Source: a phage. From it: a stretch of 56,700 bases of DNA. The position numbers and the translations under genes were made by a program. The notes under the pieces are model-generated. The model was given only the letters and a program-made list of their open reading frames with translations. It did no database searches and was not told where the DNA came from. Of this stretch, positions 29,932 to 36,987 are shown in pieces; positions within the stretch are counted from its first letter, which is position 1, and every line of letters starts with the position of its first letter. The stretch lies in the sequence record PZ544694.1, one strand, 5' to 3'.

Positions 29932-29968
29932 ATGACAAGCGAGAATTTCTCGGGGCGGTTGATGAGTG
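29893..29968. repeat. perfect 38-bp tandem duplication spanning a stop/start junction
   Basis: AATGACAAGCGAGAATTTCTCGGGGCGGTTGATGAGTG at 29893-29930 and 29931-29968; copy 1 is the 3' end of ORF 29467-29931, copy 2 is the 5' end of ORF 29932-30035 in another frame. Confidence 0.9.
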
Positions 29969-30035
29969 ATGTAGCGTACTTAATAGTCGTTGCGATGTGT
30001 GCCTTAGTTATAACACTAGGGATACGGAAATAAAT
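29932..30035 (+). CDS. small single-TM membrane peptide (33 aa), lysis-region candidate
   Basis: MTSENFSGRLMSDVAYLIVVAMCALVITLGIRK; hydrophobic core; below the ORF-track size cut-off, found by reading frame 1. Confidence 0.3.
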
Positions 30036-30147
30036 GCCCCTTTACTTTATTATCAAAACCGGCAAGACCGCTCACCGTCTTCACCACCCCAACCGCACAA
30101 CCTTTGTCCTAGGCAGTTATGAAATAAAACTTGGTCGGCCGTTTTAG

Positions 30148-30402
30148 ATGTCCTTTTGGGCTAAAATCAAGGCGATGGCTCTAGGGGTCGTCGCCTTTTT
30201 TGTCCTCCTATTCCTAACGTGGCGTAAAGGAAAACAGGACGGAAAGAACGAGAAAGTTATCGAAGATATTATCGATAACCATATTGAACAAGAACGAGTT
30301 AATGAGGTAAAACAAGATGTCGATTCGGGGATTAATAGCTTACCGGACGGCGGTAGTTCTGATCGTCTTCGCAGTGGTTGGTTGCGTAAAGACCGTAAAT
30401 AA
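30148..30402 (+). CDS. membrane protein with N-terminal TM and charged C-terminal domain (holin- or spanin-like candidate)
   Basis: 84 aa; TM ALGVVAFFVLLFL then Lys/Glu/Asp-rich tail. Confidence 0.3.
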   Translation: MSFWAKIKAMALGVVAFFVLLFLTWRKGKQDGKNEKVIEDIIDNHIEQERVNEVKQDVDSGINSLPDGGSSDRLRSGWLRKDRK

Positions 30403-31107
30403 ATGGCGAATTTAAAGCCTAAAGGTATCAGACAAAATAACCCGGGTAACTTGGAGTGGGGATCTCCTTGGCAGGGGCTAGTACCGAAAGCGGAGAGAAC
30501 GTCTCCTCGCTTTTGTGAATTCGTAAATCCGGTTTATGGTATTCGTGCGATCGCAGTAACGTTAATCACGTATTACGATAAGCGCAAATCAAAGAACGGC
30601 TCTCGCATCGACTCCGCGCGTGAAATCGTTGAGCGTTGGGCGCCGGGGTCGGAGAAAGGGAATAATACCAACGTATACGCTAAAAACTTAGCAGACCTAC
30701 TAGGCGTTGGCCCGGACGACGAAGTTATCGATATGCACGACTACGACCAGTTGTTTTTATTGGTGTCAGGCATCATCGGTACAGAAAACGGCTTCAATGG
30801 GCCACTCAAAGGCAAAACGGTAAACACTTGGTATTCTGACGAGACTATCGAAGAAGCCCTCCGTATGGCCGGGGTGACTAAGAAACCGAAAGTCGTTAAT
30901 TCTACTGCAACCGTAGCAGCCGGCACCGCAGCACTAGGCGTCGCTCAGTTGGTTGAGGTCGTCCAGCCGGTCAAGGAGGCGGTACACAATGCCTCGGGAG
31001 ACCTTTCATCTGGCGACTACGCTAGAATCTTCCTCGGCGTCGCCACCGTCGGGATCGGGATTTACCTCGGCTATGTCCGCTACCGTAAATTCAAATTGGG
31101 GCAGTGA
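30403..31107 (+). CDS. hypothetical protein, possible peptidoglycan hydrolase (endolysin candidate) with C-terminal hydrophobic segments
   Basis: 234 aa; N-terminal GIRQNNPGNLEWG; two C-terminal hydrophobic stretches; sits among small membrane proteins. Confidence 0.25.
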   Translation: MANLKPKGIRQNNPGNLEWGSPWQGLVPKAERTSPRFCEFVNPVYGIRAIAVTLITYYDKRKSKNGSRIDSAREIVERWAPGSEKGNNTNVYAKNLADLLGVGPDDEVIDMHDYDQLFLLVSGIIGTENGFNGPLKGKTVNTWYSDETIEEALRMAGVTKKPKVVNSTATVAAGTAALGVAQLVEVVQPVKEAVHNASGDLSSGDYARIFLGVATVGIGIYLGYVRYRKFKLGQ

Positions 31108-31422
31108 ATGGCGGGTAGAGATGGAGGTACGGGAGGCGTTCGCATTGACTTGGCGATCAATATCCCGACTATCCTTTCGCTAATAGCAGCGTTGTGTAGC
31201 GGTATAATGTGGGTTAATAACCAGTTTAGCAATGTTAGAAACGATGTTTTGTTGGTCACGGCTGACGTTAGAGTCCTAGAACAACGAACAACGCAAGCCG
31301 AGCGGGAAATCGCCGATATAAAACATAATACCGCACAACAAATAAACCAGTTTCGAGGTGAAGTTCGCGAAGACCTTAGAGACATTAAAACTAGCGTTCA
31401 AAAACTCGCAGATAAAAAATAG
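31108..31422 (+). CDS. membrane protein with N-terminal TM and coiled coil (i-spanin-like candidate)
   Basis: 104 aa; TM INIPTILSLIAALCSGIMWV then heptad-like charged helix. Confidence 0.3.
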   Translation: MAGRDGGTGGVRIDLAINIPTILSLIAALCSGIMWVNNQFSNVRNDVLLVTADVRVLEQRTTQAEREIADIKHNTAQQINQFRGEVREDLRDIKTSVQKLADKK

Positions 31423-33408
31423 ATGGCAGTCAACGCAAGGAACACTTCGCGGGCTGTCGTTTATCAGATCTTGCCTGACTTTAGGGCAAGGTCTACCCAC
31501 CGGAATGTTCTATATCAGGTCTCCGCGAAACTGCGTTTTCGGTCGCAGCACCGAAACGTGGTCTACCAAATACCGCCATTTCGTGCTAGGTCGGTCGTTT
31601 CTAATATAGTATATAGTACCGATTCAACTGCAAGAACGGTAATTACTGTCCCACAAGCGCTAAACCAAGTTGTCTATAACACGTCGTACCAGTTTGAGAT
31701 TTCAAACAATATCATTGGTGGGGTAATAAATACCGCGACCTATTCATGGGTTGAAGCGTTGCCGATCTCTAAACTTGATGTGAAGTCTTTTACGCAACTG
31801 GTGGTCGTTGGTACGGAATACGACACTACGTCCATGAAGTTTATCGGGCAAAACGTCCACCTCGTAAACCAAGGGCTACCGCAACCCCGCCCGGTCGATA
31901 CATGGTCGAACACGGAGATGGGTTCCGAGGTTATGCTCGTTTGTCAGTCTTTGGATATCGAATATATCCCGAGATCCGGGGTTGACTCTCCTAGCGTTGT
32001 ATCGTTGGTTTCCTACTCATCTCCGATAAAATGGGAGACAAGACCGGCTGACGTCGGTACGGTAACACATTTAGCATCGGTTCCGACGGATTTGTTCGGC
32101 CTCCCTAACTCTTTCACATCTTCCGGGAGTGTCGTTCAATTGTCGTCGTACCCGTCCACACCTCCGGCACGAGTAGGGGTTGAAAACGTCCCTCAGATTG
32201 TCAGTTTAGCCTCGATACCGGTAGGCGATGATCCGACCGTCGGAGTGGAGAAATCGTCTCAGGTTTTCACTCAAGCGATTCTGTCATCGGATTATGTATA
32301 TCCGCAATCCGATACTGATGTCGGCCAAGTTTTATTGTCACAAGTTGAGTCGGTCATTGATGAACTACCGATTTCCCCGGAGGACGTTAGTTCCGTTGTG
32401 TCCTTATCGGCGATTGGGGTCGACGCAACATGGAGTTGGTCAGATATATCTTCACCGTCAGTTAATATTTTGGCCGTACAAGATAGCCCGCAACCTCCGC
32501 TAGAGTCGTACTTCGTTTTAAATGCGGTAGGGTCTGCTACGGTGGCGATGTTATTAGAATCGGACTTCGGGCCGGCACACAAAGACAGTTACACCGAAAC
32601 GTATTCCGTACCGATCCTATCGTTGATGACTGCGCCTAAACGGTTTTACCCGCCTCTTGATAACGTGGTAGAACTTGAGAAAGGAAACCATGTTACTCAA
32701 TACGTTACGTCTACTGCGATGAAACGTGACGACGGTATGCCGATATCTACGGAAGATGTCGCCTCACTATCCATTGTTTCCGGGATAAAATCTCCGATGC
32801 CAACTCCGGACGAAGTTGCGAGGAAAGGCGACTTTATTTCGGGCCTATCGCAACACACCATGGTTACGAGTTCGTTCCCGTCTACGGAAGAACCTCAGAG
32901 TTATGTTGAAACGGGTAGTTTAGCTAAAAATATCGCGGTAACGGCATCGTACCCTGATATTCGTCTACCGATGACAGTTGGCCAAACGGACTTAGTAGCA
33001 TTTAATATCGCTAACTCGGTTGACTACCCGCCGGTGAAATCGTTTTTAATGTATGATTTCGCGGGATTAGTAACACAAAATATCGCGTGTAAGGCTAACT
33101 ATTTGCCCGCAAATACGCTAAACTCCTTATCGTTGACGACACAAACTTCGGCTAACGTTGCGTTCTCGGCCAGATACCCTGATAAAAGTACGGTTTATTC
33201 GCGAATTAATTCCGCTCAGGTTTCATCTTCGCTGGCAACGGTAGCTGAGTACCCGGATAAAGACTCAGTTCTTTCAGACATAAAGTCTACGTCCGTGTAT
33301 CAAAATGTTGTGCGCGTCGATTCTTCGTTATATCACATGCCACACCCACCGCAGAGACATCGCGTTAGGATCGTGTGTAAGATGATATATGGATATAAGA
33401 ACCGATAA
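31423..33408 (+). CDS. putative tail fiber / structural protein with internal repeats
   Basis: 661 aa; N-terminal RNVLYQV / RNVVYQI / SNIVYS repeats; recurring (S/E/R/D)YP(D/S/Q) motifs; Ser/Val-rich. Confidence 0.45.
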   Translation: MAVNARNTSRAVVYQILPDFRARSTHRNVLYQVSAKLRFRSQHRNVVYQIPPFRARSVVSNIVYSTDSTARTVITVPQALNQVVYNTSYQFEISNNIIGGVINTATYSWVEALPISKLDVKSFTQLVVVGTEYDTTSMKFIGQNVHLVNQGLPQPRPVDTWSNTEMGSEVMLVCQSLDIEYIPRSGVDSPSVVSLVSYSSPIKWETRPADVGTVTHLASVPTDLFGLPNSFTSSGSVVQLSSYPSTPPARVGVENVPQIVSLASIPVGDDPTVGVEKSSQVFTQAILSSDYVYPQSDTDVGQVLLSQVESVIDELPISPEDVSSVVSLSAIGVDATWSWSDISSPSVNILAVQDSPQPPLESYFVLNAVGSATVAMLLESDFGPAHKDSYTETYSVPILSLMTAPKRFYPPLDNVVELEKGNHVTQYVTSTAMKRDDGMPISTEDVASLSIVSGIKSPMPTPDEVARKGDFISGLSQHTMVTSSFPSTEEPQSYVETGSLAKNIAVTASYPDIRLPMTVGQTDLVAFNIANSVDYPPVKSFLMYDFAGLVTQNIACKANYLPANTLNSLSLTTQTSANVAFSARYPDKSTVYSRINSAQVSSSLATVAEYPDKDSVLSDIKSTSVYQNVVRVDSSLYHMPHPPQRHRVRIVCKMIYGYKNR

Positions 33409-34986
33409 ATGTTGACGGGAGGTTATAGCGATGAAAGTTGGTTGCCTGACGATTCTTACGCTCCTAATGGCTCTCTAGACGTATCTAAGATCCCGCTATT
33501 CACGGTAGATAGTCGTGGCTTATTTAATGGCGGTAATACTGGGGCTATGTTGTATACTTTTAGAGCTTCCGGCCTCTATGCTCCCGTATCCGCACCGTGG
33601 TCGCCTAGCTACCCTTTCGGGTATCCGTTCAATAGTCCGAGTATTCGACCGGAGTTATCCCCGAGCGGTTTTTCTATTGTACCTTGCCCGACTAGACCCG
33701 GAAGAAAGCGCTTCATGTTCCCCGGAAAAAAGATGGTCGGTAGACCCCTTACTTCTACAAGTAGCAGTGATAACTGGTCGGGGTCTCCTAACTGCTTCTC
33801 AATTCGCTATCGCATTCCTAGACCGTCGGTATCGGCTCCGGCAGGGCGTCAAACTAGCATATCTTTTGTAGCTAGATTTAATAGACGTACGGATAAGACC
33901 ACTAGACTAGCTTGGTATTTTTCTGTCGGATACCCGTCGATTAAGGTTCGACCGGGATACCAAACTAACTGGAGGAATTATGGGCTATCCAGTTTATGTC
34001 CGGGGTTCTTCGCTAGTTATATAATTTTTGGGAGTTCTAAACGTATAAATCTAGGGTCAGGAACACCGGGAGATACGGAGACTTGCACTTATTCAGATGG
34101 TCTTCCGTGGGTGTGCTTAAGACCTAACAACGAATTAGCTACGGATATACCCAACCCGACGGTACCGGGGAGAGACGGTCATTTTTTCAAATTTGAGTTC
34201 GACCGAGATTACCATATAGAAATTTTGTTGAGGATAAACTCCGCTACAAACAATTATGTAACTCGACCCTCCGTGAAAGTATTCATCGATGGGGAACCCG
34301 TCAGCAGTTGGAACGTTTCTGGAGCCAATGACGAGTTCTGGATTCCGCCCGAGGATACGTCAAATTTAGCTACTTCGGATCGGGTAAACTCAGAGAACTT
34401 TCTTACAGGGTTGCAGTTTAATTTTCAGATGAATCATAAGTACAACGTGTCAGTTTACCCGACGTATCACTATCCGGAGATGGCGGAGGAGTCCGGCCCG
34501 GTATTGATTAGTGATATCGTGGTAGGGGAGTCCAGTGCTTCCGACGGAGAAGTTGTCTTCGGGCCGTCAACTCGCGTATGGGGAGACGCTCCTAACTCGG
34601 ATATCGAGACATCATTCAAACGGCCACAAAGTTTCGATTCTAATGCTAGCGTGGTTGGTGCCCCCATGGGGTCGAATGTTGTTGATGAGGGGGCCGAGTT
34701 ATCCGGTGGGGCTGGAGACCGAGACATGTATAAAACCGATGGTAGTTCTATGCCGGATTTCGCCGGGAATATCTTAGGAGTTCAAGTAAAATCGATAGTT
34801 CGTGCCCCGTCCGCTGACGGCGAGGTCGTATCGCTACTAGGAGAAAGAGAATTGGGGTCTACCGAACTAAAGGCTTCGAATGGCGGGCGCTATTCGTCCG
34901 TAGCTCACACGATTACTTATACAACCCCCACCTCTCCTGAAGAAATATCCAATACTGCTTACGGTATATCAGTGAAAGAGGTATAA
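33409..34986 (+). CDS. putative tail fiber / receptor-binding-like protein
   Basis: 525 aa; central DRDYHIEILLRINSATNNYVTRPSVKVFIDGEPV resembles the WYYFEI...V(W/F)INN motif of the three downstream paralogs. Confidence 0.4.
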   Translation: MLTGGYSDESWLPDDSYAPNGSLDVSKIPLFTVDSRGLFNGGNTGAMLYTFRASGLYAPVSAPWSPSYPFGYPFNSPSIRPELSPSGFSIVPCPTRPGRKRFMFPGKKMVGRPLTSTSSSDNWSGSPNCFSIRYRIPRPSVSAPAGRQTSISFVARFNRRTDKTTRLAWYFSVGYPSIKVRPGYQTNWRNYGLSSLCPGFFASYIIFGSSKRINLGSGTPGDTETCTYSDGLPWVCLRPNNELATDIPNPTVPGRDGHFFKFEFDRDYHIEILLRINSATNNYVTRPSVKVFIDGEPVSSWNVSGANDEFWIPPEDTSNLATSDRVNSENFLTGLQFNFQMNHKYNVSVYPTYHYPEMAEESGPVLISDIVVGESSASDGEVVFGPSTRVWGDAPNSDIETSFKRPQSFDSNASVVGAPMGSNVVDEGAELSGGAGDRDMYKTDGSSMPDFAGNILGVQVKSIVRAPSADGEVVSLLGERELGSTELKASNGGRYSSVAHTITYTTPTSPEEISNTAYGISVKEV

Positions 34987-36003
34987 ATGTTAAAACATCA
35001 AGACGGTTTCGACCACTACGCAGATATCGGCAAGAAAGGTTCCGTAGTCGAGCCGTACTTAAAAGCAGCCGGGTATGATATCCGAAATGCTACTGACGAT
35101 ACGTTCCAGATTGACCTAGGTCGTCGTGACGGCGCTAAGAGCCTTAAATTTACCGTAGAACGTAACTCCGCAACCAATGCGTCGCTATCATGGGGGTTCA
35201 CTCCGGCCGGAAACTACGCGTGTTTCGGTTTCGCGATGAAAGCCAATGGTTCTCGTATGCGAGTATGTCGGGTTGAGAACTTGGTCGACGTGGAGTGGGA
35301 TAGCGAAGACGGTAAGCTAGAAATTGATGGCCAAAAAGGGGTAAACCCGCTGATCCTTAATGCGTGGTATTTTTTCGAGATAGAACTTGATAAGTCCGCT
35401 AAGAAAGTAACCGTATGGGTTAATAACGAAAAGCAAATCGAGGCGACCCTTACTACTTCTTGGCCTGAAAAACTCGTTCTGGTATGGGGGCAAGTGGGTA
35501 CAGCGCCCAATGCGGGTATCCAGTACCTAGATGATTTTTACGCTATGGACGATTCGGGGTCGGTAAACACTTCCCGCCTAGGGCCGATTGAGGTTGCTAC
35601 CCGCGCTCCTACTTCTGATGTTACGACCGAATGGGAGATCGTTAACGGCACTAACGAAAATCACTACCAAGTTGCCTCCCAACTGGAGCCGGGGAGACCT
35701 AACGCACCGTATTTACAGTCTAACAAGTCGGGAGCTAAAGACATTTTCCGTTCTAATACGATCCTACCGACTAACAACAAGGTTTTCGGCGTGTCGGTGA
35801 TTGCGTATGCCCGTAAAGGGGACTTAGACGACCGCAAACTCGGTATGGTGATCCAGACTGACGGGGGTTCTGAGAAAGAAGTCCAAGTACCGTTGACCGA
35901 AGACTATAAATACTACCAAGTTACCCACGAACAAACTCCGGGTAATACCGACTGGAATAAAGGCGCTGTCGAAGCATTGCAGTTCGGCATCGTGACTCGA
36001 TAG
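34987..36003 (+). CDS. putative receptor-binding / tail fiber protein, paralog 1
   Basis: 338 aa; shares WYFFEIELDK, LGPIEVATRAPTSDVTTEW, YLQSNKSGAKDIF with ORFs 36004 and 36988. Confidence 0.5.
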   Translation: MLKHQDGFDHYADIGKKGSVVEPYLKAAGYDIRNATDDTFQIDLGRRDGAKSLKFTVERNSATNASLSWGFTPAGNYACFGFAMKANGSRMRVCRVENLVDVEWDSEDGKLEIDGQKGVNPLILNAWYFFEIELDKSAKKVTVWVNNEKQIEATLTTSWPEKLVLVWGQVGTAPNAGIQYLDDFYAMDDSGSVNTSRLGPIEVATRAPTSDVTTEWEIVNGTNENHYQVASQLEPGRPNAPYLQSNKSGAKDIFRSNTILPTNNKVFGVSVIAYARKGDLDDRKLGMVIQTDGGSEKEVQVPLTEDYKYYQVTHEQTPGNTDWNKGAVEALQFGIVTR

Positions 36004-36987
36004 ATGATGCAATTTATGGACGGTTTCGACCAGCTAAAAGATATGCCGTCGGATAAGATGGTAAATTTACTCAACAACTCGGGGTACAACGCAGTACCGC
36101 CGATCCGTATTGCGGAGGGACGTAATACAGAAACCCGATGCTTATACCTAGGTGATGTAAACGAGAACGCAGCAAGCCCGGCAACACTGTCTCGACTTTT
36201 TAACTCCGAGACTAACCGTGTGGTTATCGGTTTTGCGTATTGTGCGGACAAAGTGCGGGACGATATTATCCGTATTCCCGGTTTTGGGGTGCTCGCTTGG
36301 AACCGCGACAATGGTAAAGTCTCCTTGGCCGGTGTTACGGGTCAAGCTATCTTGCTCCTAGGTATCTGGTACTATTTCGAGATCGTCATCAACAAAGAAA
36401 CAAATACTTTCCAAGTTTTTATTAATAACGGTGCGGACTTAGCTGGACAACTACCGGATAGTGTTCGTTTCATGACAGACTACAAATGCGAATGGCCGGG
36501 CGGTTCTGGCGGTAAAAAATTAGATGATATCGTTTTTATCGATGCGCAAGCCGGCAAATACGTTGACCGAGTTGGCCCGATTGAAATACTCACCCGAATG
36601 CCGACGGTGGACGTGGTGAGCGAATGGTCGCCATCGAAAGGCGATAACCACTGGTCTCTTGTCAGTAATCGCCCTCCGAAAGAGGACGAATATATTCAGT
36701 CTAACGTCTCCGGCGCGATGGATACTTTCAAAAGTGAAATCCCGCTCGACGCTAAAGGCGACATCTTGGCCGTGAGTGTCACCGCGATCAACCGTAAATC
36801 TGACGTAGATAATAGACAACTCGGGTTGGTGGTTGGCGAGAAAGACAAACAGTTGGAAAAGGTAGATGAAAAACTTACCTTGACTGACAAAATAAGTTAT
36901 GCTGTATTCGAAAATTCTCCGCTCGGCGCTAATTGGGATCGCGATAATATCCCTGAAACTCCGTTCGGTGTAGTTATTAGACCATAA
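36004..36987 (+). CDS. putative receptor-binding / tail fiber protein, paralog 2
   Basis: 327 aa; WYYFEIVINK, VGPIEILTRMPTVDVVSEW, YIQSNVSGAMDTF. Confidence 0.5.
   Translation: MMQFMDGFDQLKDMPSDKMVNLLNNSGYNAVPPIRIAEGRNTETRCLYLGDVNENAASPATLSRLFNSETNRVVIGFAYCADKVRDDIIRIPGFGVLAWNRDNGKVSLAGVTGQAILLLGIWYYFEIVINKETNTFQVFINNGADLAGQLPDSVRFMTDYKCEWPGGSGGKKLDDIVFIDAQAGKYVDRVGPIEILTRMPTVDVVSEWSPSKGDNHWSLVSNRPPKEDEYIQSNVSGAMDTFKSEIPLDAKGDILAVSVTAINRKSDVDNRQLGLVVGEKDKQLEKVDEKLTLTDKISYAVFENSPLGANWDRDNIPETPFGVVIRP

Follow-up and report, generated by a model that had tools for sequence, protein, structure and literature searches.

Lysis systems closest to the locus

Biochemical data on the Enc34/M4Lys (PHA02564) endolysin family date from 2020, when M4Lys of the Salmonella phage BSPM4 was characterized (Bai et al. 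2020, PMC7143992). A structure followed in 2022 for the endolysin of Enc34, a Hafnia phage (PDB 7Q47; Cernooka et al. 2022, PMC8943055). For the Enc34 enzyme, Glu131, Tyr95 and Trp79 were named as the catalytic residues (PMC8943055). The truncated domain of M4Lys degraded peptidoglycan with glucosaminidase-type cleavage, and the full-length protein alone lysed E. coli, for which its transmembrane domain (TMD) was required; lysis was independent of holin and Sec (PMC7143992). No route is known by which an N-terminal hydrophilic domain crosses the membrane through a C-terminal signal (PMC8943055). The spanins of Chi and Enc34 have been catalogued as an overlapped two-component family (PMC6139136). 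Membrane tethering by a weakly hydrophobic, Gly/Ala-rich helix is also found in SAR endolysins and their pinholin systems (phage 21 R21/S21, P1 Lyz), which, like the M4Lys type, make lysis possible without a large-hole holin.

The analyzed sequence and the native cassette

The window, i.e., the whole stretch of 56,700 nucleotides that was analyzed (PZ544694.1), is ~100% identical to phage E21 (NC_052983; an Escherichia/Proteus phage of the Casjensviridae, genus Lavrentievavirus). It does not occur naturally in this form: ~84 called CDS of E21 were concatenated exactly, in record order, each of them turned to the + strand in coding orientation, with intergenic DNA taken out and overlaps duplicated. 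Window findings that depend on the order of genes, on their overlaps or on signals between them need to be re-checked on the native genome. The following features of the region were considered:

29932-30033 (including the stop), + strand in the window: 33-aa ORF with a single transmembrane (TM) segment; E21 record 31288-31389, + strand; native sequence L001 9047-9148, - strand.
30053-30147, - strand: C-terminal fragment of the putative o-spanin (…KTADQVLFHNCLGQRLCGWGGEDGERSCRF*), found by minus-strand translation and mapping to E21 coordinates.
30148-30402, + strand: 84-aa putative i-spanin (Rz-like); phrog_1026 'Rz-like spanin' at 1.2e-16, 35% identity to Enc34 ORF40.
30317-30402, + strand: N-terminal fragment of the putative o-spanin (Rz1-like lipoprotein) in the +1 frame of the i-spanin gene; window ORF 30317-30415.
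30403-31107, + strand: 234-aa predicted endolysin of the Enc34/M4Lys type, by homology to the Enc34 endolysin and structure match.
31108-31422, + strand: 104-aa holin-like protein, first gene of the native cassette, by ORF, hydropathy and homology.

The ORFs of 84, 234 and 104 aa had been called correctly in the first-pass annotation, all on the + strand, while the 33-aa ORF ends at 30033 and not at 30035. As had been proposed, the small proteins are predicted membrane proteins, with one TM segment each (19-residue Kyte-Doolittle). Their arrangement around the 234-aa protein, which had been read as flanking, is partly an artefact of the concatenation, and the native order of the three lysis genes (104, 234 and 84 aa) is the reverse of that in the window. 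The native cassette starts with the 104/114-aa holin-like gene, followed by the genes for the 234-aa endolysin, the 84-aa i-spanin and the overlapping 79-aa lipoprotein o-spanin, and ends in a bidirectional terminator. The hairpin of this terminator was the sole feature that stood out in the promoter/terminator scan of the native locus, in which no promoter scored above shuffled expectation.

The proposal of a candidate lysis cassette was borne out, as each of the four genes has its own counterpart among Enc34 ORF38-41, in the same native order. The identities are 34% to ORF38 ('holin', E=8e-20), 51% to ORF39, 35% to ORF40 ('putative Rz') and 60% to ORF41 ('putative Rz1', E=1e-24). The E21 endolysin shares the catalytic Glu, Tyr and Trp of Enc34. 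Both phages have a dual-start TM holin-like protein, an endolysin with a PHA02564 domain and a two-helix TMD, and overlapped spanins, and in both of them convergent early genes follow the lysis module; E21 belongs to Lavrentievavirus, Enc34 to Enchivirus. We are confident that the region is the late-gene lysis cassette of E21, of the Chi/Enc34 type, with a 234-aa endolysin that would be held at the membrane, a probable holin-like regulator and a spanin pair.

The spanin pair

The 84-aa protein has the architecture of an i-spanin, with an N-terminal TM helix (peak at residues 7-25, 2.22) and a charged periplasmic domain. No lipobox o-spanin had been seen in the first-pass annotation, but a lipobox ORF does exist, out of frame within the 84-aa gene from position 30317. 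It encodes MSIRGLIAYRTAVVLIVFAVVG/C, a lipoprotein signal with the lipobox VVG/C and Cys23. The artificial junction 30402/30403 cuts this ORF after 28 codons, whereas the native protein has 79 aa. Its C-terminal part is found on the minus strand of the window since the window contains this stretch as an antisense 37-aa 'gene', and ~59 nt of the o-spanin gene between both fragments are missing. The 37-aa ORF itself (30034-30147) was judged to be a spurious call, since it is antisense to the o-spanin gene.

In the native sequence, the o-spanin ORF (L001 8776-9015) uses the +1 frame relative to the i-spanin gene; it starts 169 nt into that gene, shares 86 nt with its 3' end and shows the features of an o-spanin. 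Its product is also 56% identical to BSPM4 ORF_40, and the homologue in the Proteus phage DanisaurMW is annotated as O-spanin in its record. Compared with the Enc34 protein, it has a longer C-terminal tail with Cys. As in lambda Rz/Rz1 and P2 LysB/LysC, an inner-membrane TM protein has an outer-membrane lipoprotein as its partner, whose gene uses the +1 frame. The overlap of the two genes resembles that in P2. No sequence similarity to lambda Rz/Rz1 was detectable, and the i-spanin of E21 is far shorter (84 aa). In the last step of lysis, the pair would disrupt the outer membrane through its fusion with the inner membrane. The o-spanin is absent from both E21 records, and RefSeq calls the holin-like gene a spanin; both annotations can be corrected.

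The holin-like protein

The 104-aa protein consists of an N-terminal TM helix (~residues 15-37; peak 15-33, 1.99) and a charged helical C-terminal domain. Its native ORF (L001 7548-7892) has an alternative start 10 codons upstream, which is absent from the window and leads to a protein of 114 aa (MDIRTDNGGNM...), so that Met1 and Met11 form a dual-start motif; the second start lies 10 codons downstream in E21 and 3 in Enc34. The 104/114-aa protein thus combines the structural features of a holin: it is small, with one TMD and a charged C-terminus, and its gene opens the cassette with two possible starts. Homologues were found in 151 phage records, nearly all of them Casjensviridae-like, and the identity to BSPM4 ORF_37 is 29%. 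Pfam and NCBIfam returned no informative family for any of the lysis proteins, and for the 104-aa protein just weak, sub-threshold coiled-coil matches.

The roles of the two small proteins might be swapped, the 104-aa protein being the i-spanin and the 84-aa protein the holin. This is suggested by the match of the 104-aa protein to phrog_7686 (3e-43), which PHROGs labels 'Rz-like spanin', as does RefSeq, by its TM helix and long coiled coil, which are typical of i-spanins, and by the behaviour of its BSPM4 homologue, which alone was not toxic, unlike most holins. However, it is the 84-aa gene with which the o-spanin gene overlaps in the +1 frame, as is characteristic of Rz/Rz1 pairs, and the 84-aa protein itself matches phrog_1026 'Rz-like spanin' and the 'putative Rz' of Enc34. 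In addition, the spanins of Chi and Enc34 are listed among the overlapped ones, and the 104-aa gene is first in the cassette with a dual start, as described for Enc34 ORF38. We regard the swap as improbable. The two proteins showed no significant similarity that would make them paralogues (blastp, E=0.6).

The 104-aa protein with its TM helix and coiled coil most likely determines or adjusts when lysis occurs, as a holin, pinholin or antiholin-like regulator. BSPM4 ORF_37 was dispensable for lysis and slightly delayed it (PMC7143992); by analogy, these data argue against a classical holin role for the E21 protein.

The 234-aa protein as the endolysin

The 234-aa protein comprises an all-helical catalytic domain (residues 1-163) and a two-helix membrane domain (residues 167-227) followed by a basic tail. 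The NNPGN motif noticed near its N-terminus is located at residues 12-16, and the hydrophobic segments reported for its C-terminus were found as two segments, 169-187 and 207-225 (19-residue Kyte-Doolittle). In a phmmer search of the PDB, residues 5-163 matched the catalytic domain of the Hafnia phage Enc34 endolysin (7q47_A, E=9.1e-53). The structural comparison with hydrolase folds that the first-pass annotation had suggested led to the same protein: an AlphaFold2 model, with a pLDDT of 84-95 for most of residues 11-160 and residues 1-160 helical, as in an all-helical catalytic fold, matched 7Q47 in Foldseek with E=1.3e-16 and a target-normalised TM score of 0.84-0.88. No other fold in the PDB was found at E<1. 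The protein also matches phrog_873 'endolysin' (1.4e-67).

Trp79, Tyr92 and Glu128 of the E21 protein align with the catalytic Trp79, Tyr95 and Glu131 of Enc34 and are invariant across 34 homologues. The E21 protein lacks 3 residues of the loop that follows Trp79 in Enc34, which accounts for the shifted numbering of the Tyr and the Glu. The identity to M4Lys is 57% over the full length (51% to Enc34 ORF39; both blastp), with the C-terminal TMD and basic tail shared and no substantial sequence difference. The M4Lys gene also has the neighbours of the E21 gene: it follows the gene for lysis protein B and precedes the spanin pair. By homology to characterized proteins, the 234-aa protein is the predicted endolysin of E21, with a putative muralytic domain; muralytic activity and host lysis on expression were observed for the homologues (PMC7143992, PMC8943055).

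The first-pass annotation had recognised no lysozyme, amidase, transglycosylase or CHAP motif in the window, and Pfam agreed for the 28 proteins scanned. For the 234-aa protein, Pfam returned no family at E<=0.1, thus no lysozyme, amidase, SLT or CHAP domain, nor any T4-, lambda- or P22-type lysozyme, GH25, GH19, amidase_2/3 or M15/M23 peptidase domain, and an NCBIfam scan gave nothing meaningful. Pfam detected no domain of a peptidoglycan hydrolase in the 27 other window proteins scanned. Twenty of these served the search for a second, canonical endolysin; they contained the tape measure (1443 aa), the tail protein (1259 aa), proteins of the tail-fibre region and ten early hypothetical proteins but not every small ORF.

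The 234-aa protein could also be a virion-associated peptidoglycan hydrolase for DNA injection, the true endolysin being encoded elsewhere or absent. Indeed, the family of its catalytic domain was first named provisionally as 'virion protein' (PHA02564), some records name proteins of this type 'structural protein (P5)', and the same domain occurs inside large virion proteins: in phrog_873 (a 1277-position profile of the head and packaging category), in phrog_7182 'tail injection transglycosylase', in the tape measure phrog_2276 and in the 1295-aa Gp29 of PDB 9vvp (E=3e-7). Nevertheless, the E21 protein is a small, free-standing one with a membrane domain, and its gene lies between the holin-like and spanin genes. 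Its 57%-identical homologue M4Lys lyses E. coli from within, and no other hydrolase was detected among the 28 proteins scanned. We consider a virion role very unlikely.

That the endolysin might be divergent or novel, as the first-pass annotation had suggested, is correct insofar as the protein matches no canonical Pfam hydrolase family and is thus divergent, but not as to novelty. A new, uncharacterized kind of peptidoglycan hydrolase, for which the lack of a Pfam/NCBIfam family and of any Foldseek match in the PDB but 7Q47 could speak, can practically be dismissed in view of 50-60% identity to two experimentally characterized enzymes, a solved structure, hundreds of homologues and an existing annotation as endolysin.

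Judging from homology, the endolysin of E21 is non-canonical yet belongs to an already known family, and the lysis cassette is real but not new. The E21 records already label the 234-aa protein 'endolysin' and 'putative lysis protein A', and with a crystal structure and biochemistry available for the family, the finding in E21 adds little to it. The Enc34/M4Lys family does explain why no canonical endolysin motif is seen in Chi-like (Casjensviridae) phages.

The C-terminal membrane domain

The hydropathy profile of the 234-aa protein is that of a two-helix membrane domain, with values of 1.59 and 1.62 for the peaks at 169-187 and 207-225. The AlphaFold2 model has helices at 167-198 and 205-231, with a pLDDT <50. 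Across the 34 homologues, the charge pattern of the domain is conserved: the linker carries a net charge of +2.0, the loop one of -1.7 and the tail one of +2.6; the mean hydropathy is 0.76 for TM1, which contains 52% G/A/S/T, and 1.45 for TM2. The domain would thus comprise a weakly hydrophobic, Gly/Ala/Ser/Thr-rich helix 1, an acidic loop, a more hydrophobic, Gly-rich helix 2 and a basic tail.

The SAR domain is N-terminal and Sec-dependent, whereas the membrane domain of the E21 protein is C-terminal. No hydrophobic segment, and so no N-terminal SAR helix, was found in residues 1-36; the first weak hydropathy peak (37-55, 1.37) lies in or beside the long helix 43-65 of the catalytic domain. 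Unlike that of Sec-dependent SAR endolysins, the lysis by the E21 homologue was not blocked by azide.

We infer that the C-terminal domain of the endolysin itself would hold the enzyme at the inner membrane and, upon reaching a critical concentration or upon membrane depolarisation, would let the catalytic domain reach the murein. Self-access of this kind would account for the holin- and Sec-independent lysis by M4Lys, although no such C-terminal-signal route is known. A possible, though rather doubtful, explanation is that the 234-aa protein is a self-sufficient 'holin-endolysin' fusion, whose hairpin, like a class II holin or pinholin, makes the lesion for the enzyme. Equally tentatively, it would insert N-in/C-in with a cytoplasmic enzyme; its weakly hydrophobic TM1 would resemble a SAR helix, the acidic loop would face the periplasm, and the Gly-rich TM2 and the basic tail would follow. 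The 104-aa protein would then be a timing regulator or antiholin and not a hole-former. If true, the fusion would represent a fourth, mechanistically distinct mode of endolysin export, beside canonical holins, SAR/pinholin systems and signal-peptide endolysins. Published work on M4Lys and Enc34 has already put forward this idea, so that E21 would be only a further test case.

The 33-aa ORF

The 33-aa peptide had been counted among the proteins of the lysis cassette, but because of its native strand and position it lies outside it and was ruled out as a lysis component. Its native strand is opposite to that of the lysis genes, and it ends just short of the bidirectional terminator, beside the convergent nucleoside 2-deoxyribosyltransferase gene, whose last 38 nt (3' end) it overlaps. 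The peptide is unannotated in the listed records and conserved in Lavrentievavirus only, with one hit at E=0.7 outside the genus; it matches phrog_1470 'TciB-like' (4e-5).

The window is a concatenation of E21 coding sequences

Megablast identified the window as Escherichia phage E21 (MN604053/NC_052983; Casjensviridae, Lavrentievavirus; 58,536 bp), whose near relatives are mostly Proteus mirabilis phages with 95-97% identity; the match to E21 was split into many pieces. We compared the entire window with the entire E21 genome and parsed the result into exact matches. The window (1-56700) is an exact head-to-tail concatenation of ~84 called CDS of E21 (NC_052983.1) and not a natural contiguous sequence. 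The pieces keep the record order, every piece is flipped to coding orientation (plus strand), and each opens with a start codon and closes with a stop codon; intergenic DNA is gone and overlap bases are present twice. Because of this concatenation, nearly all ORFs of the window start directly after the preceding stop, and genes on the minus strand of the record appear opposite to the order in which they are transcribed. The concatenation also split or removed promoters, terminators and genes that overlap out of frame.

In the native locus around the lysis genes (L001), the order is tail genes, gp44, gp43, and the genes for the 104-aa (gp42), 234-aa (gp41) and 84-aa (gp40) proteins, followed by a terminator, beyond which a nucleoside 2-deoxyribosyltransferase gene lies convergently on the other strand. 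The terminator is a bidirectional intrinsic hairpin, AAGGGGCATTACGCCCCTT (L001 9026-9044), with T-runs on either strand, which natively stands between the lysis operon and the early operon convergent with it. Only a truncated form is present in the window, its native site falling between the pieces 29932-30033 and 30034-30147.

Some gene calls of the window differ from those of the record: the 661-aa ORF at 31423-33408 starts 135 nt upstream of annotated gp43 (616 aa), and the 525-aa ORF at 33409-34986 starts 63 nt downstream of annotated gp44 (546 aa). In the tail-fibre region, the adjacent paralogues at 34987-36003 and 36004-36987 (338 and 327 aa) match phrog_2448 end to end (E = 6e-120 and 4e-111) and are a tandem duplication. 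Genomes with ~96% identity to the related Proteus phages are on record under the names Pseudomonas phage E21 (PV596763), Enterococcus phage AS-M1_NWU (OR506460) and several Salmonella phages (SD-11 to SD-14); with genomes so closely related, such host names seem doubtful.

The 234-aa protein is an endolysin of the Enc34/M4Lys family

The first-pass annotation, made from the sequence alone, had proposed a lysis cassette at 29932-31422 with a possibly novel endolysin. All four of its ORFs were found, the smallest ending at 30033 instead of 30035, and Kyte-Doolittle peaks supported a transmembrane (TM) segment in each small protein. Its composition and order had been misread owing to the artificial structure of the window: the 33-aa ORF lies outside the cassette, and the order is reversed relative to the native one. 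The native cassette matches the lysis module of Hafnia phage Enc34 (ORF38-41) gene for gene. The proposal of a lysis cassette was correct.

Features of the lysis region of E21 and their Enc34 counterparts (window positions unless marked L001)
29932-30033, plus strand: 33-aa ORF, one strong TM segment
30053-30147, minus strand: last 30 codons of the o-spanin gene
30148-30402, plus strand: 84-aa protein, one strong TM segment; 35% identity to ORF40 "putative Rz" (E = 7e-14)
30317-30402, plus strand: first 28 codons of the o-spanin gene, ending at an artificial junction
30403-31107, plus strand: 234-aa protein, ORF confirmed; 51% identity to ORF39 endolysin (E = 1e-90)
31108-31422, plus strand: 104-aa protein, one strong TM segment; the 104/114-aa protein has 34% identity to ORF38 "holin" (E = 8e-20)
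L001 8776-9015: 79-aa predicted o-spanin (native ORF); 60% identity to ORF41 "putative Rz1" (E = 1e-24)

The 234-aa protein had no Pfam match at E ≤ 0.1 and belongs to none of the canonical Pfam lysin families, so the enzyme is indeed non-canonical. It is nevertheless not novel. A phmmer search of all PDB sequences matched residues 5-163 to 7Q47 chain A "Endolysin" (E = 9.1e-53), which is the Enc34 endolysin's catalytic domain (Cernooka et al. 2022, PMC8943055). The first-pass annotation had suggested comparing a predicted structure with hydrolase folds; our AlphaFold2 model, based on 32 homologues (pLDDT 84-95 across most of residues 11-160), matched 7Q47 in Foldseek (E = 1e-16, target-normalised TM-score 0.84-0.88), and no other PDB chain scored below E = 1. 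The protein has 51% identity to ORF39 and 57% to M4Lys, the endolysin of Salmonella phage BSPM4, along its entire length, with the C-terminal membrane domain included. In PHROGs the protein falls in phrog_873 "endolysin" (1.4e-67), and the E21 gene is already public as "putative lysis protein A" (GenBank) and "endolysin" (RefSeq). A database search brought up 324 homologues, nearly all of them ~230-260 aa in length.

The residues important for catalysis in the Enc34 enzyme, Glu131, Tyr95 and Trp79 (PMC8943055), align with Glu128, Tyr92 and Trp79 of E21, which are invariant in 34 family members. The NNPGN motif noticed near the N-terminus (residues 12-16) is similarly conserved in these members, with N13, P14, G15 and N16 invariant and N12 at least 90% conserved. 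The truncated domain of M4Lys breaks down purified peptidoglycan (Bai et al. 2020, PMC7143992), and that of Enc34 lysed outer-membrane-permeabilised E. coli, P. aeruginosa and H. alvei (PMC8943055). Homology thus indicates a muralytic domain of glycosidase type in the N-terminal part of the E21 protein, where Glu128 is the predicted catalytic acid.

The first-pass annotation had recognised no canonical hydrolase by eye, and Pfam found no peptidoglycan-hydrolase domain in 27 other window proteins, among them the tape measure and the large tail proteins. The authors of the Enc34 study likewise state that its genome has no other endolysin candidate (PMC8943055). The 234-aa protein has all defining features of the Enc34/M4Lys family that sequence tools can test, and the N-terminal SAR helix that defines SAR endolysins was looked for and is absent. 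We conclude that lysis cassettes of this kind are known and published, and that the locus is an ordinary example.

An overlapping o-spanin gene is missing from the annotation

The first-pass annotation had seen no lipobox o-spanin, an understandable oversight because the gene is not among the window's pieces. Natively, the 79-aa ORF begins 169 nt inside the 84-aa gene, reads in its +1 frame and shares 86 nt with it. Its N-terminus, MSIRGLIAYRTAVVLIVFAVVG/C, is a lipoprotein signal with a lipobox (VVG/C). Judged by this lipobox and overlap, the 84- and 79-aa proteins are an overlapped i-spanin/o-spanin pair, the class to which Kongari et al. 2018 (PMC6139136) assign Chi and Enc34. The pair is annotated as i-spanin/o-spanin in Proteus phage DanisaurMW; the o-spanin gene lacks annotation in both E21 records (MN604053, NC_052983), and ~59 nt of it are missing from the window. 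The 37-aa "gene" at 30034-30147 extends into the native bidirectional terminator region, where it keeps part of one stem arm. As it runs antisense to the o-spanin C-terminus, this is very likely a false gene call.

The remaining small membrane proteins

Two in-frame starts (Met1 and Met11) exist natively for the 104-aa protein, which recalls the dual-start motif of Enc34 ORF38 (PMC8943055). It is a putative, unproven holin. PHROGs and RefSeq call it "Rz-like spanin", a label that RefSeq gives to the 84-aa gene as well; for the 104-aa protein, with the genuine spanin pair sitting downstream, the name is most likely an error brought about by the protein's TM and coiled-coil architecture. The BSPM4 homologue showed no toxicity, was dispensable for lysis and made it slightly later (PMC7143992).

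The 33-aa ORF natively lies on the plus strand of the record (31288-31389), overlaps the deoxyribosyltransferase gene by that gene's final 38 nt and stops just short of the terminator, which rules it out as a member of the lysis cassette. If real, it would belong to the convergent early/middle operon. It lacks annotation in the listed records, shows conservation confined to the genus and roughly as high as the DNA identity, and weakly matches phrog_1470 (TciB-like, small membrane proteins; 4e-5).

Proposed role of the C-terminal membrane domain

Full-length M4Lys suffices alone to lyse E. coli, azide does not block this lysis, and the C-terminal TM domain is needed for it (PMC7143992); full-length Enc34 endolysin is toxic (PMC8943055). 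By homology, the membrane domain of the E21 enzyme would also be needed for lysis from within, and the cassette includes a two-component spanin. A 19-residue Kyte-Doolittle scan gave two moderate C-terminal hydrophobic segments (169-187 and 207-225). Among 34 homologues, the linker ahead of TM1 is basic (+2.0), TM1 is weakly hydrophobic (52% Gly/Ala/Ser/Thr), the TM1-TM2 loop is acidic (-1.7) with an invariant Ser-Gly, TM2 is Gly-rich and more hydrophobic than TM1, and the tail is basic (+2.6). Under the positive-inside rule, this pattern favours either an N-in/C-in hairpin that is similar to a class II holin or pinholin and has a SAR-like first helix, or, if TM2 alone spans the membrane, the N-out/C-in topology that Bai et al. 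predict (PMC7143992).

In either topology the enzyme would be tethered at the inner membrane, with access to murein governed by the enzyme's own C-terminal domain. The 104-aa protein would probably tune lysis timing, and the spanins would finish lysis by disrupting the outer membrane. The remaining interest is family-wide: the route by which a C-terminally anchored endolysin reaches its substrate.

The Enc34-type catalytic domain (window 30403-30800) also occurs at the N-terminus of the 1295-aa Gp29 (PDB 9vvp, E = 3e-7) and within PHROG families whose annotations read tail injection transglycosylase, tape measure and head protein. Other phages therefore also use this type of domain in a wall hydrolase carried by the virion.
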